Of a stretch of DNA of 20,201 nt, positions 1 through 6,000 are shown one piece after another. Source of the stretch: Candidatus Sulfobium sp. (lineage in GTDB: Bacteria; Nitrospirota; Thermodesulfovibrionia; Thermodesulfovibrionales; UBA6898). Made by a program: the position numbers. The stretch is from positions 29,274-49,474 of the forward strand of contig JARRRI010000058.1 of NCBI GenBank assembly GCA_037380845.1. The letters are read 5' to 3'. Within the stretch, counting starts at the first letter, position 1; each line of letters opens with the position of its first letter.

Positions 1-3000
1 CCCATGGCTTCTTCCGAAAGTGTGCTATTCGTTTCTTTTCTGTAGACGGTTATCGGCAGGTTTTTTTCATTAAAAGTCGGCTTCACATTGTAGATGCTTC
101 CCGTAGATACAGCCAACTTTTGAGTGCCAACGGATTTAACTGCCGAGATCATACAAACAAATTTCATAACGTTCCCCAAGAGGGCAATCCCCGGTTCAAG
201 AATGAGTTCGGGCCCTCTGTCCTGGGGGTATGCTTCTTTAAACTGAGGGGCAATCGCCTGAGCATAGTCCTCATAAGTAGGACAATAAAAAGCGAACTGC
301 TTCGCGAAGTCCTTGTCTATTTCACCAAAAAAACCACCACCCAAATCCAGAAAATCAGGTATCCGATCACCGAAACAGGCTTTACTGATCTCAATCATTT
401 TTTTGGCTCTCAGGTAATATGATCCTATGCTTCTGTGAGGAGTCGAAAAGTGGCAATGAAGCCCTTTGACACGGCAATTGGATATCTTCCCTAGGTACTC
501 AAATATTCTATCCACTTCTCCTCCACCGACATCACAACCAAACCGGGAGACATAATCCGTGCCGATATCGAAATTGCACCTTATGCCGACAGAGATTTCA
601 AGCTCCGGCTCCTTTCTTGCCAGAATGCCGACGAGTAAAGCTTCGTGAAATGAATCAAGATTGACAGTAGACCCGGCCTTTACGGCCTTCTCAATATCCG
701 AAGCCGTTTTTAGAGGACCATTGAAAATGATATTGCCTGGAGCAACTCCAACCTGTATTGCCAAATCATATTCCATCATTGAGACCACTTCGGCATAGCT
801 TCCTAATGAGTTGGCATATCTACATAGAGCGGGTGTATAATTTGTTTTATATGAAAAAGCCAGCCTAGTATGTGGATATATCGACTGGAAAGCAGACTGG
901 AAATCTCTGTAATTTGCATCAAACCGTTTTAAATTCAATAGGTAAAAAGATTCTCCATATTGCCCCGCCAGATTGCTGAGCAAATCCCAGGATAATTCCA
1001 TCAGAAAGCCCTTTCGTCACTTATCGATGACATTATTAATTTTAACAGACCAGACTTTTTTCAATAAAGTGTGCGATATTGGTCGCAAGGGAAAACTTGA
1101 CCTTGTTCGCAAGCATGACCATTCAGCTGACGAACTTGCTTAAAAAAGCAACTGCCCCTGCTCCCTCTATCCCCACCTTTGCCATCACTTCCCGGAAGAT
1201 AAAGATATCCTCCCGCTCTATGCTCCTTGTGATCAGCAGGCTCGCGGCATAGCCACCTATAAACAGAAGAAAGTAAACCGGCAGCATCCAAGACTGAAGT
1301 GGAATGCTCTGGGCCAGGACATATATTAACACTCCCGTCAAGGCCGCCCCGACCAATGGCCTGAGATAAGCAGAGGTGAATGGATGCATGCTGTTATATC
1401 TGATCAGGCTCAACGAATACAGGAGATTGATGATTATGTAGGACGACATAGTGGCCAGCGCTGCCCCCGTAATGCCCATCCCGAGATATTTTATCAGCAC
1501 GTAGTTCAGAACTACATTAATTATCGCCCCTGTGATGGAAATGTTCATTATAGTTTTAGTGAGCCCGATTACTGTGAGGAGCATCCCGTTTGTGCCAAGA
1601 AAGGCGTTTATCATGAAGCCAATAGCCAGTATCCTCAGCGACATGGCAGCGTCGACAAACCGACTTCCAAAAAGCACTGTAATTGTCATCTCCGGAAAGA
1701 AGAAAAAGACGAAGAATAGCGGCAGGGTTGCTGCGAAAACCCATTTCGTGAGGACCTGATATGTTCTCTTAAGCTCCTGTGATTTCTTTTTCGCATATAT
1801 TTCACCTGCTATCGGCAGAAACACGTAGCCGAGGGCTGATAAAGGGAAAAGCAGCAGCCTCACAAGCGAAACACTCACGCTGTAGGTGCCCACGACTGCG
1901 GGCGTGGAGTAGCGTCCGAGCATCAGAGTATCCGACCACATAAGAGCAAGAGACATGATGGTGGACGCCAGCAGCGGAATGGAAAACTTCAGCAACTTCA
2001 TGTGCCGTCTTCCTGCCTTCGGCATAAAAGGCCGCGCACCAAGTTTCTGAACGCCGTAAACTACGACCAGAACGGATGTCGCCGCGCTGGACGCTACAAA
2101 GGCGTAGAGAATACCTTTTAAGTGCAACCCGAGAAAGATCGCCACGAGTAACAGAACCAGGTATAAAACAGGAGTAAAGACATCTGAAAAGACCCTCTGC
2201 CTGATTACGCCGAAGCCGAGCATCACCCCGCCTGCCACGCCTCCTGCCACACTGAACGGGATCAGAAAGGATATTACCTTGAGCGGGACGGCGAGCTCCG
2301 GGGTATAAAAGACCTTTCGGGCTATAAGACCGGAAAAGAGGTAAACTGCCGCGAAGCACAGCAGGCCCAGCGGCAGCAGCATCTGCATCCCCGCCCGCGC
2401 TGTATAGTAGGCCTCTTCCCTCTTCTCCTCGCCGAGGTGGAGGGAGACAAACCGGGACAGCCCCGAAGGTATTCCAAGTAAGATAACAGCCGAAATAACA
2501 CCCAGGACCGTAAGGACTAGCGAATAGATGCCGAACTCGACCTTTGTAATGTCCCTGACCACGAGGATCTTGATAAAAAACCAGAGCAGCTGACTGAAAG
2601 CCATGCTCGCCAAGACAAAGGTGGAGCCCTTGGCGGCTTTTTTTAAAGAAGAATTAACGGTCTCAGACATCCAATACTCATTATAACAAAAAGCTTTTTT
2701 GTAATCTTGGATCTTTCCCTTCCGGATGTAAACAGCAGACAGCCCTGAGATCCGATAGAAATTAGTCCCTGAAACATTTTTATTTATTGCGGATTACAGA
2801 AAGGGCCTCTTTTTCAAAGAGATGAGCGAGTTGGCCATATCTCTGTGTTTTCTTCATCCGAGCCAAGAGACTGAATGCCTGGTCTTTCCGTCCGTCTCTC
2901 AGCAAAAAGTTAATAAACGGCCATGCCACCCTCTCCGGAGGGGCCATGATAAAAGCCGATTTAAAGAAATCATTTCCCTTCTTCTTATCGCCGTCCCGCA

Positions 3001-6000
3001 TGAGGAAATCAGAATAGAAAAGAGTATTCAGCCCGTACTGGTCCGTGAGCTCCTGGACCAGGAAATCGTTAGAAGGGGGCATGTTCAGGACGCTTTCATA
3101 GCTTGTCTTTTCGAAAGCCTCCTTGTATTTCCGCCTAGTGTCCGATTCGAAAGCTCCGGCTGGCTGCCCCTTAGGCCATAGAGCAGCTGAAAAGAGATAC
3201 GGATAATAATCATAAAATTCAGCAACGACCTTTGTCATGCTCAGAGGGTTGTCGACAAAAAGCTTCTCCTTCAGCGCAAATTCATCGTTTATCTCTGAGA
3301 TCGTGCTCTTCAGACTGTGATAAAATCCCGGGTAAAGACCAGCGTATTTCCAGGCGGGAGCACACTCGAGCCCGAAAATGTCATTATTCCCGCTCGTATC
3401 CATGACCAGCACATCGTCTCTCAACCGCTCGACACCTTTCATATAAAAGGCGGTGAACATTGAGTTGTCACCGTGGTTCATGAGCAGACTCTTCTCCGGA
3501 AGAGACATGAGCATATCCCTGCCGTAAGTGTAGCAGATAACATTATTGCTCAGGCCGTATTGTCCGACAGTATAAGGCAGGAAAACAAAAGGCAGTACCG
3601 CCACGGCGTAAGACCCGAATCCAATCAGTGTTGACCAGCGCCTTCTCCTGATGAAAGAGAGGGTCTCTGCAAATCCGACCGAAATGAGGGAATACAGTAT
3701 GGGAACCGCAGGCAGAAAATATACTGAGACAACTTCGGTTCCTGCTAGGTTTAGCTTAGGTCCGGAAAATACCAGTTTTCCGAGCAGTAGAAACCAGACA
3801 ATTCCCGAAAATCCGAAATACGCCAATATCCTCAACCTCTTCCTCAATCCGATAAAGCCTATAAGAAGAAATGGCAAAACAGGCTTCACGCTCCAAAATG
3901 CCACATAGTAGAGACTGTTTCTAAGACCATACAACCATGCACTGCCAAAAGATAAAGTGCGCTCAAGAGTTAGAGGTGTGGATCCGCCCTTATAGTCCTG
4001 CCTGAAAAAAACCCTCAGGAAGTCTTTTAATGTCCCCGTATGGGAATACAGAATCAGACCCCCGTGGTCCGCCATTGCAAGAGACCTCAAATAGAGGAAG
4101 AGATAGACGGAAAATCCAAGGAGGAATAAGAGAAAACCGAAGATCGCCCATCTCACCGACAGCTCCTGCCACCTCATTGCCAGGGGAAACAGGACAATCA
4201 AACCCATGAAACCGATGGTATGGTGATTTCCCATTCCGAGGCCGATGAGGAAAAATGCCAAAAGAGAACTTCTGAAAATGTCCTTTCCCTTGATGATCCT
4301 TATGCCTAGATAAAAAACAATCATCGCCAGGAAACTATTGAGCGAGTAAGCTTCGGCCTTAATTGATTCCGTATAGAATATGGGGGATATCCCGCAAATC
4401 AGGGCCGCCGCCCACGACGCCGGCCTGCTTTCAGTAAGTTCCATGGAAACCTTGAAGACCATAAGACATGTGAGAGCGCCGGATATTGCGCTTACGAGAT
4501 TGACTTTGAGACCTACATTCCCGAGCGGAAGGAAAGTCAGGAGCTTCCCCAAAATTATGAACAGGGGATATCCCGGCGGGTGCGCTGAGCCGAGGGAAAA
4601 AGAGGCGGCGGCAAAGAGACTGCTGTCCCCGACATAGATCGTCGGGCAAAGGGAAATCAGGAATATGAGAAATGAGGCAGAAAGAACAACCGAACCATTT
4701 GTTTTCACATTCCTGGCAAACTCAGACATTGAAAAGTTCACTTTCTTTCATTAAGCGATCCACAGCCAAAAAGTTGTCATAAATGCTTTCCCTAAAATGT
4801 CCCATCACTCCGCATCACAGCAATTATATTCTTTTTGGCATCTTTCCGGCAAAAAAAGCGGGAGCTGCCCTGTGGGAGCTCCCGCCATGAACGTTCTTTT
4901 CCCTCCTGATCAGTCTGCTGAAAGGACCTTTGAATACATTACGTTACCATCGTTGTCATACACTGACACGACGACCTGCCGGATTGAACTATCATCGGCA
5001 GGCGTGGCGCTAAGGCAGATCTGGCCTGCCATGGAAGAATCGCAGCCACCGCTGGTTCCGTCATTCCAAAGTTGTTTGCCGCCCCACGGCGAAGCCTCGT
5101 GGGCGTTGTTGTTCCTCGCGTCTGAGAAAGTATGGACAACCCCAGCATCTGCCAGAGCAGCGTTGGTATCGTCAGAGGTATTGACTATGCCGTCCCAATT
5201 GTCGTCAACCTCTTTAAGTGTGCCCTGCGGGGTGCCGGACTTCTTCGCCGCCACCATCCATGCAGTGAGTTCCGGCTCCGAGGCAACGGCTGTCCTCTCG
5301 ATTGCAGCTTTCCTGCTTCTTTCCTGCATGCCGATATAACCCGGGATGGCTATGGCCGCCAGTATACCGATGATCGCCACAACTATCAGAAGTTCGATAA
5401 GGGTAAAACCCTGTTGCTCCTTCACATTATTCATTGCCTTAAACATCAAAACACCTCCTTGTTAAATTCTTGCGGCCGAGAGCCGCAACAAAATCCCCTG
5501 CTGCAATTTTGTAGGACATCACCTCCTCAAGTAAACTTTCTTTACCTAGAAGCAGTTTCTATGCCATGACGTGAGTAGATTGGCAGTCCAAAATCGCATC
5601 AAATTTAAGGCCAATTTCATCTTTGACGACCAAAAAACGTCACTTGGCTGACAAATATCGTCACTTTCATGGTTTGATTACCCGATAATACTCCTTAAAA
5701 GAGGAAAAAAACTTCAGCAAGAGCGGAAAACCTCGATGAACTATTGCCTCATGACAATTCTCAGAATAAAGAATAAGGGAACTTGAGCAGTATGGCAGAT
5801 GCCCGTTCAGTCCGATGATATCATTTTCCTCAGGAAAGTATTGCCGTCCCTTGTCGCATATTTTGCGGCACTGCCGACGACTATGCGACGGAACGAACTG
5901 TGGTATAATCTAACACAAAAAAACAGGCGGGGCGAGGATGAAATATATCGGTCTTGATGCAGGTTCCGTAAGCGTAAAACTTGTTCTCCTCGATGAAAAG

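Follow-up and report, generated by a model that had tools for sequence, protein, structure and literature searches.

A TMEM260-type GT-C gene directly behind a type IV pilin gene in Candidatus Sulfobium: a probable pilin O-glycosylation locus

Described pilin glycosyltransferases and human TMEM260

TfpO and PglL belong to the O-antigen-ligase-type class. Both are described as transferring undecaprenol-linked oligosaccharides en bloc, and TfpO, encoded behind pilA, glycosylates the cognate pilin (10.1101/2020.04.19.049825). The same position is held by the gene for TfpW, the arabinosyltransferase of Pseudomonas aeruginosa group IV pilins. This GT-C protein of 646 aa with 11 predicted transmembrane (TM) segments and a periplasmic C-terminal TPR domain glycosylates the pilin encoded directly upstream; the O-linkage is to Ser/Thr, with Thr64 and Thr66 as the main sites (10.1101/2020.04.19.049825).

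The latest human O-mannosylation pathway to be discovered is that of TMEM260 (CAZy GT117; PDB 9RQL, 9RQM and 9RQN), whose loss leads to a severe congenital syndrome of heart and kidney. According to the structure preprint, D441 is the catalytic base and D52 binds the donor, mutation of D52, H67, R264, Y267 or D441 abolishes activity, and R355 contacts mannose, the R355 mutant keeping 20% activity (10.64898/2026.03.17.711096). The human acceptors are IPT domains with a P/GG/T sequon, and an asparagine ladder in the TPR region serves to bind them. The founding TMEM260 paper mentions merely 'distant homologs in bacteria', and no function of a bacterial TMEM260 was found in the open-access literature.

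The locus and its TMEM260-type enzyme

The window, that is, the whole stretch of DNA analysed, comprises 20,201 nucleotides of a Candidatus Sulfobium sp. contig. Its relevant features are as follows.

3-1001, minus strand: PLP-dependent decarboxylase-like gene (PF02784), cut by the window edge, part of the variable cluster
1123-2670, minus strand: polysaccharide flippase, Wzx-like (PF01943, E 2.5e-20)
2780-4741, minus strand: TMEM260/GT117-family GT-C gene, 653 aa from GTG or 649 aa from the next ATG
4823-4852, minus strand: sigma-70-like promoter match (10/12, consensus scan), 5' of the TMEM260 gene
4855-4884 (approximate), minus strand: intrinsic-terminator-like hairpin with U run, directly 3' of the pilin stop (folding against shuffles)
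4910-5449, minus strand: type IV pilin, putative major pilin and proposed acceptor, 178-179 aa (PF07963, E 1.5e-9)
5938-10350, plus strand: CoA-activase-like gene, 1470 aa, divergent from the pilin (PF01869/PF09989)
10540-12564, minus strand: TMTC-like GT-C with TPR repeats (DD motif and TPRs)

Three further members of the same cluster lie outside the window (G000, contig coordinates).

C58:18821-19582: polyprenol-phosphate-sugar synthase homolog
C58:18196-18843: three-TM protein of 215 aa
about C58:17750-18195: minor pilin (ComP/PilE-like), at the far end of the cluster

The survey's finding of a TMEM260 homolog directly behind a type IV pilin was confirmed by both open reading frames and by their PF11028 and PF07963 matches. 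The two genes lie on the same strand, 168 nt apart by ORF calling, and the pilin start is preceded by a ribosome-binding-site-like GGAGG. The pilin carries the prepilin cleavage/N-methylation motif and a hydrophobic helix (PF07963, 37.4 bits; TIGR02532 over its cut-off). The hairpin between the genes folds at -24.3 kcal/mol (z -4.8), which none of 200 shuffles equalled, is absent from the output of the consensus scan, and counts against a pilin-directed role of the enzyme. The promoter match is no better than chance (3 sites vs 3.6 in shuffles), and no RNA holder is listed for window positions 2500-5900.

The product of 2780-4741 is a member of the TMEM260/GT117 family with a GT-C fold and kept active-site residues. 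It matches PF11028 with E 1.4e-25 (90.5 bits against a curated cut-off of 24.2) and PMT_2 with E 1.1e-9. Human TMEM260 (9rql) is its sole PDB match at E<=1 by phmmer (E 1.5e-21, residues 16-449, previously numbered 12-445 from a start four codons later), and a profile match (E 5e-98) extends over chain residues 30-611, the tail past human residue 611 being unaligned. The predicted structure (pLDDT 92.5) is helical to about residue 395, has strands at 419-523 and ends in a helical tail, and thus shows the human domain order.

about 10-395: TM GT-C module
about 400-525: Rossmann-like domain
remainder: helical-repeat tail, without a Pfam TPR match

The active-site equivalents are D39 (human D52), H54 (H67), R247 (R264), Y250 (Y267) and D425 (D441). 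Among 27 unfiltered full-length orthologs, to which the count was confined, D39, R247 and D425 are each present in 27, Y250 in 26 and H54 in 23; counts of the D52 and H67 equivalents over 225 sequences were set aside as circular, because those rows had been chosen by that very motif. A catalytic aspartate had been reported as kept: D39 is indeed universal among these orthologs, but according to the preprint the base is not D52 but D441, whose equivalent D425 is kept as well. The R355 equivalent is V340 (arginine in 3 of 27 orthologs; alignment column uncertain by one position), a loss that lowers the case for mannose and leaves the family assignment unaffected. The bacterial system also differs from the human one in its acceptors, since the IPT/TIG domain (PF01833) had no match in five of five genomes, and a search of 52 pilins and of this genome's ORFs of 150 aa or longer turned up nothing resembling the human P/GG/T sequon. 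A second PF11028 match in the genome (C72, E 5e-8) is better regarded as a PMT_2-type GT-C and adjoins no pilin.

With TfpW, compared here by its description only, the protein shares the GT-C class, a length of about 650 aa and the place directly downstream of pilA. The published account gives TfpW a DDX motif in loop 1 and a YX6PFX7P motif. In the TMEM260-type protein the first 70 residues contain no DD, and no YX6P-X6-9-P pattern occurs; it would work like TfpW by position and is not filed as TfpW. A DD is carried by the TMTC-like proteins. An O-antigen-ligase-type Pfam match, which would link it to TfpO/PilO and PglL, was not obtained for the protein. The actinobacterial Pmt/PMT family and ArnT have in common with it the GT-C fold, the PMT_2 match and lipid-monophosphate sugar donors; they differ in being 11-12% identical, and a TMEM260-type donor-loading loop and Rossmann base are not shown for them here.

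The flippase is the first gene of a variable glycan cluster bounded by the pilA-TMEM260 pair and the ComP/PilE-like minor pilin. This cluster also carries GT2, GT4 and GT9 genes, an aminotransferase, a sulfotransferase and sugar-modifying genes, in agreement with the flippase and glycosyltransferases listed by the survey, and the flippase might take part in pilin modification. As the enzyme heads a cluster with a flippase, it could serve that pathway, and a sugar from a polyprenyl-phosphate donor might be moved, ArnT-like, to lipid A or to a polysaccharide that is lipid-linked or on the surface, the pilin linkage merely marking a variable surface-structure island. The best listed structural matches of the model, ArnT (Z 26.3) and ALG12 (Z 24.1), point this way, 9RQL being listed in neither fold search and possibly postdating the search libraries; so do the genes that follow, among them, in several f10 loci, a GT9 gene as the second gene downstream. 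Such a target is nonetheless quite improbable, given that ArnT and ALG12 are only 11-12% identical, against a TMEM260 profile match with E 5e-98, which includes the protein-acceptor base D441, and that the genes downstream of the enzyme differ or disappear among loci while the pilin stays. On the other side, the CoA-activase-like gene is the same divergent neighbour at many pilin loci and is a positional landmark outside the mechanism. The TMTC-like GT-C formerly assigned to the cluster is present nearby, but its membership is unsupported, since the genome holds seven such copies and this one lies beyond the unrelated 1470-aa gene; it is 23% identical to the TMTC-like proteins found behind pilins elsewhere.

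Pilin linkage and an interchangeable slot

Across the order, the earlier counts of orthologs (26 of 121 genomes) and of upstream pilins (28 of 30 loci) were borne out, the former on a wider set. Orthologs occur in 36 of 151 genomes, 33 of them strong and 3 weak over a PMT_2-like stretch only, and of 30 loci, this one included, 29 have a same-strand pilin gene as their immediate upstream neighbour, the exception (L026) being cut by a contig end. As a background rate, a pilin-motif ORF immediately precedes 8 of the 2899 ORFs of this genome. Paralogous loci in different chromosomal contexts have their own pilin upstream in four of four cases, and G013 has three pilin-enzyme pairs. In family f4 the directly upstream gene resembles a minor pilin, which speaks against a pilin-directed role.

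In multi-copy genomes, the nearest enzyme relatives mostly carry the nearest pilin relatives, across host families. Enzyme and pilin distances correlate (Mantel r 0.43; 0.18 after controlling for family), and the partial correlation is 0.17 for the acceptor-binding tail vs 0.13 for the TM part. Tail-specific co-evolution with the pilin was looked for and not seen; since the tail shows no closer fit to the pilin than the TM part, the co-phylogeny may be plain linkage. The pilins adjoining TMEM260 genes belong to very different subtypes without a common motif. Mature S57 and T59 can be put forward as weak candidates for glycosylation sites; T59 is present also in three pilins behind which no GT-C was found.

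The place behind the pilin is not reserved for TMEM260. Of 30 loci with this type of pilin, 17 have an STT3-like GT-C as the first gene that is not a pilin, 5 have TMEM260 there and 4 a TMTC-like protein, so that one of three GT-C types fills the slot in 26 of 30. This alternation behind one pilin type is a new observation. The STT3-like family (Foldseek E 1e-7, TM about 0.5) is unnamed; a relationship to TMEM260 was considered, and given a weak profile comparison (probability 27%) they are kept apart as two families. By position, the TMEM260 enzyme would be one of three interchangeable GT-C alleles in a pilin-accessory slot that looks similar to the tfpO/tfpW slot of Pseudomonas. No TMTC-like gene was found behind a pilin in 30 loci of the G348 phylum, which did not resemble Pseudomonadota, and none of these loci had a pilin upstream; this sample may contain no TfpW carriers.

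The pilin-TMEM260 pair recurs in 11 of 30 loci of Desulfobacterota and 4 of 8 of Patescibacteria, both drawn evenly as phylum samples. As the survey had cautioned, most homologs elsewhere have other neighbours: among 22 copies from the remaining Nitrospirota orders a single one has a pilin beside it, as do 2 of the 80 loci from named genomes and 6 of 77 metagenome loci, with none in the remaining 71. The named-genome set consists largely of Geobacterales (53), an order whose copies precede PilB in 36 of the 41 loci that could be evaluated. Pilin pairing is found on several branches of a 166-row FastTree tree (one long-branch warning), on which the adjacency label changes 7 times, at least 5 of them forced by starred branches.

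These neighbourhoods bear on whether the enzyme is a broader periplasmic protein O-glycosyltransferase that has the pilin as one client or mere neighbour and modifies mainly other envelope proteins. Other TMEM260 clades adjoin multiheme cytochromes, NHL proteins or LPG_synthase_TM genes instead of pilins, the lack of a pilin sequon fits a general enzyme, and the 215-aa protein is single-copy even in G013 with its three enzymes and occurs also, split, with enzymes that do not adjoin pilins. We regard this as unlikely, because every one of the 32 order-clade members in the tree has an upstream pilin, each paralog retains its own pilin, and slot-for-slot exchange with other GT-C families is unexpected for a general enzyme.

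Partner proteins, proposed mechanism and meaning

Two proteins co-occur with TMEM260 in the order, an association that is new here (genome counts are not phylogenetically independent). The unnamed 215-aa protein is found in 31 of 33 TMEM260 genomes vs 0 of 118 others, and the polyprenol-phosphate-sugar synthase homolog in 32 of 33 vs 8 of 118. In a second phylum sample, all 22 carriers of the 215-aa protein also have PF11028; it was not found in G350, G363, G035 and G102, and structure and Pfam searches returned no solved relative and no convincing family. An extra membrane partner is thus apparent for the bacterial enzyme, and none is described in the accessible text of the human structure preprint (10.64898/2026.03.17.711096). 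The synthase homolog, noted by the survey as a polyprenol-phosphate-mannose synthase relative, indeed matches dolichol-phosphate-mannose synthase 5mlz (E 4e-26), and within the organism's own family a DPM1-like synthase is present in exactly the 3 of 16 genomes that have TMEM260.

The donor might instead be a flippase-delivered oligosaccharide moved en bloc to the pilin by TfpO/PglL-like chemistry. A flippase does follow the enzyme directly in this genome, G121 and L159, the R355 equivalent is lost, and TfpW is reported to build and transfer oligomers. Yet the human donor-binding residues are kept, the synthase accompanies TMEM260 almost without exception, and many loci have no flippase nearby, which makes en bloc transfer the most improbable of the alternatives.

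From the gene context, the best reading is that the locus probably encodes a pilin O-glycosyltransferase module that uses a lipid-phosphate monosaccharide. A TMEM260 relative behind a pilin, in a slot filled elsewhere by other sugar transferases, most likely sugar-coats the pilus, and the earlier proposal of the pilin as first candidate substrate has gained support from the kept catalytic base, the paralogs with their own pilins, the replacement in the slot and the recurrence in other phyla. By analogy with the human enzyme, D39, H54, R247 and Y250 would hold a polyprenyl-phosphate monosaccharide, D425 would deprotonate Ser/Thr, and the acceptor, by position probably the pilin, would be gripped by the Rossmann-like domain and the helical tail. 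Co-occurrence suggests that a soluble Ppm/DPM1-like synthase makes the donor, and that the 215-aa protein may be an accessory subunit that anchors the synthase or assists the transferase. The transferred sugar could be mannose or, because the R355 equivalent is not kept, another monosaccharide.

It is possible, though we propose it only tentatively, that bacterial TMEM260 belongs to an as yet undescribed module for protein O-glycosylation with three parts: the GT117 transferase, a DPM1-like synthase for the donor and the three-TM TPR-like accessory protein. Surface proteins would have recruited this module repeatedly, pilins doing so in three or more lineages and multiheme cytochromes in a further one, and behind pilins it would alternate with TMTC-like and STT3-like GT-Cs as a variable pilus-glycan cassette. 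If so, relatives of two human domain-specific O-mannosyltransferases would act in bacteria as pilin-modifying enzymes that can replace one another. In Pseudomonas, glycans on the pilin are reported to block phage (10.1101/150227), so that the slot may be a phage-driven cassette, with phage masking as a plausible purpose.

The slot itself reveals a swappable pilin-accessory position with a large unnamed STT3-like family. The locus offers a first candidate substrate, donor enzyme and partner for a bacterial TMEM260, testable with three or four genes. If the pilin reading is true, the known pilin glycosyltransferases TfpO, PglL and TfpW would be joined by a further enzyme family, and TMEM260 chemistry and the evolution of acceptor specificity could be studied in a simple bacterial system.

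The pilin and its neighbouring GT-C enzyme

The survey's finding of a type IV pilin gene followed by a TMEM260-type gene holds for the window, where both ORFs are present as described and are separated by a hairpin:

4910-5449, minus strand: type IV pilin, 178 aa
4855-4884, minus strand: terminator-like hairpin between the pilin and enzyme genes (z -4.8)
2780-4741, minus strand: P0001, a 653-aa membrane protein, 168 nt downstream of the pilin

Because this strong hairpin, which is not among the elements listed by a consensus scan, lies behind the pilin, expression of the P0001 gene probably either falls below that of the pilin or starts from a promoter of its own.

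P0001 belongs to the TMEM260-like Pfam family PF11028 (90.5 bits against a cut-off of 24.2), and the structure of human TMEM260 (9rql) was its sole PDB sequence match at E<=1 (E 1.5e-21). With a profile of 68 sequences, chain residues 30-611 of 9rql were covered at E 5e-98. The AlphaFold model of P0001 (pLDDT 92.5) begins with a TM helical module up to residue ~395, continues with a domain that contains beta structure (~400-525) and ends in a helical tail, and fold searches with this model led to the GT-C enzymes ArnT (Z 26.3), ALG12 (24.1) and Pmt1-Pmt2 (24.0).

The survey had regarded D52 of the human enzyme as the catalytic Asp (PMC10214176). This residue is better described as donor-binding, since a preprint on the structure assigns D441 as the catalytic base and lists D52, H67, R264 and Y267 as donor-binding and essential (10.64898/2026.03.17.711096). 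All five are retained in P0001 as D39, H54, R247, Y250 and D425 (equivalents of D52, H67, R264, Y267 and D441). An alignment of 27 of the 30 order loci, made without a motif filter and omitting the partial or split L026, L028 and L030, revealed D39, R247 and D425 in 27/27 full-length orthologs, Y250 in 26/27 and H54 in 23/27. According to the same preprint, human R355A retains about 20% activity. The equivalent position is V in P0001 and R in just 3/27 orthologs, so that, judged from sequence, the sugar need not be mannose. At L030 (G098:C3:11540-13031), two pilins are followed by a TMEM260 gene that is broken into two ORFs (375 and 279 aa), either through an assembly error or because it is a pseudogene.

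Pilin linkage and the exchangeable slot within the order

A strong TMEM260 match was found in 33 of 151 Thermodesulfovibrionales genomes and a weak partial one in 3 more. The proposed conservation of the pilin-TMEM260 pair across the order was borne out: the gene lies immediately behind a pilin in 29 of 30 loci, and the remaining locus is cut by a contig end. As a chance background, 8 of 2899 ORFs in the own genome are located directly behind an ORF with a pilin motif. A separate pilin also accompanies each of four extra paralog copies, whose surroundings are unrelated, and one genome (G013) carries three such pairs. In multi-copy genomes, the closest enzyme relatives mostly lie behind the closest pilin relatives, across host families. 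The pair travels as a unit; the enzyme-pilin Mantel r of 0.43, or 0.18 when family is controlled for (32 pairs), is no evidence of binding. Agreement with the pilin is no closer for the acceptor-binding tail than for the TM part (0.17 vs 0.13).

The order was also searched with the pilin as query, and the genes behind it were inspected in the 30 best loci. Of the first same-strand non-pilin genes, 5 encoded TMEM260, 17 a member of an unnamed ~620-aa family, 4 a TMTC-like DD/TPR protein and 2 something else (a transposase-like stretch in one locus; the other lies close to a contig end). The other 2 loci had no further gene on the pilin's strand within the available stretch. The unnamed family (L281:1482-3353 and relatives, alignment A4) occurs in 88/151 order genomes, often as tandem paralogs, and combines a WDYDFWWH-like first loop with a TPR tail. 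Pfam and NCBIfam assigned no family to it and gave weak TPR matches only, and its model (pLDDT 89) best matched STT3/PglB (E 1e-7, TM ~0.5); this STT3/PglB-like GT-C family is itself a candidate pilin glycosyltransferase. In the Atlas, clusters of PMT_2 and DUF1736 neighbour the TMTC-like allele, which is a lead only. The last ~30 C-terminal residues (10540-10620) of the TMTC-like ORF of the window look unlike TPR sequence, which may reflect a frameshift or truncation, and its counterpart in G121 (L038:16763-17998) appears fragmented. Typically, the pilin is followed by one or more GT-C genes, then by variable glycan genes and finally by a ComP/PilE-like minor pilin. In one locus without a GT-C gene (genome G030), three pilins are followed, on the other strand, by a gene for a protein of >3000 aa with repeat-like sequence (L295:3-9059).

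This slot parallels the position of tfpO and tfpW in Pseudomonas aeruginosa, and GT-Cs that glycosylate the pilin encoded next to them are already known. In a study of that species, either gene lies directly behind pilA and its product glycosylates the pilin, TfpW being a 646-aa GT-C predicted to cross the membrane 11 times and to end in a TPR tail (10.1101/2020.04.19.049825). P0001 may work in a similar way, yet it is not filed as TfpW because the DDX and proline motifs of TfpW are both missing from it.

Occurrence beyond the order

Two phyla were sampled evenly, those of a Geomonas genome (G351) and of a Curtissbacteria genome (G349), in which PF11028 was found in 34/201 and 8/151 genomes, respectively. 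A pilin lies directly upstream in 11/30 loci of the former and in 4/8 of the latter; one more locus of the former has a fragment resembling a pilin where the contig ends. A directly upstream pilin is likewise present in 6/77 metagenome loci, 55 of which have sufficient upstream DNA, and in L151 (four tandem pilins) and L055. A FastTree of 166 rows requires 7 changes of the pilin label, of which starred branches force at least 5, and its order clade is pilin-linked in 32/32; one pair of pilin-linked rows is joined through long branches, and the tree leaves out most Geobacterales near-copies, L335, rows without the N-terminal motif and rows with <900 nt upstream and no pilin.

A family-wide rule is contradicted by other Nitrospirota orders, where 1/22 copies is pilin-adjacent, and by the named-genome loci (2/80). 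The 53 Geobacterales loci of the latter set (L093-L145) have no pilin within up to 6 kb on each side; in 53/53 the TMEM260 homolog follows an LPG_synthase_TM gene, and aroE/pilB-pilT-pilC lies downstream in 36/41 evaluable loci. An open-access literature search on putative locus tags of this gene found no paper naming them. In other Nitrospirota orders, several copies lie beside multiheme cytochromes. In family f18 (L077, L079, L080, L087, L089, L091), up to three TMEM260 homologs per locus border genes for large multiheme cytochromes and NHL-repeat proteins, suggesting that extracellular cytochromes are glycosylated there. Patescibacteria-like loci (L245, L189, L310-L312, L315) carry TMEM260 inside pil operons, in L245 between pilins and ahead of a prepilin peptidase, and in one metagenome locus an AglB/STT3-type oligosaccharyltransferase gene (L209:675-2921) immediately precedes two pilins and a TMEM260 gene.

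Candidate partner proteins and acceptor sites, and a proposed mechanism

Two further genes accompany TMEM260, a DPM1-like synthase gene and the following one on the same contig (C58):

C58:18196-18843 (L250:3700-4344), minus strand: unnamed three-TM protein of 215 aa, far end of the own cluster, outside the window

The 215-aa protein has hydrophobic segments at 6-24, 162-180 and 195-213 and a weak TPR/SNAP likeness. Single-sequence and profile searches detected it in 31/151 order genomes, all within the 33 TMEM260 genomes and in 0/118 others. Its gene directly follows TMEM260 in 10/10 f10 loci examined and in G027; most f2 and f4 genomes show no such linkage, so linkage alone does not account for the co-occurrence. 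In a second phylum, it was found in 22/141 genomes, 22/22 PF11028-positive, with apparently 26 positives in that range of genomes. It is whole in 5/5 pilin-linked genomes tested, in 4 of which its gene lies just ahead of a prepilin-peptidase-like gene (2 Pfam-confirmed), is split into two separate pieces in Geobacter-type genomes and was not found in G350 and G363. The DPM1-like synthase (E 4e-26 to 5mlz), which has no TM segment, has orthologs in 32/33 TMEM260 genomes vs 8/118 others and, within the own family, in exactly the 3/16 bearing TMEM260; these counts, like those for the 215-aa protein, are descriptive, since related genomes are not independent. In G000 (the own genome), G013, G101 and G121, the synthase gene and the 215-aa gene overlap or abut; in G655, the synthase gene adjoins the C-terminal piece.

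Regarding the acceptor, no TIG match was found in 5/5 genomes and the human-type sequon is absent from the 52 pilins examined; the human enzyme tolerates sequon variation (10.64898/2026.09.21.753134). Mature S57 and T59, close to the positions of Thr64/Thr66 in the pilin that TfpW modifies, are Ser/Thr in 5/6 TMEM260-linked pilins of the own type vs 1/21 linked to other alleles. They are candidate acceptor sites only, because T59 is also present in three pilins that no GT-C gene follows.

The family and fold of P0001, its active-site residues, its linkage to the pilin, the exchange in the slot and the co-occurrence were observed directly, and a pathway can be proposed beside them. The synthase would load a monosaccharide onto polyprenyl phosphate, the 215-aa protein may anchor the synthase or assist the transferase and, after flipping, P0001, with D425 as base, would attach the sugar to Ser/Thr of the pilin anchored in the membrane. 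The open-access literature, covered mostly as titles and abstract openings, yielded no function for bacterial TMEM260/DUF2723/GT117 proteins. The genes described here probably represent a pilin O-glycosyltransferase module that uses a lipid-phosphate monosaccharide, a prediction well supported by gene context.
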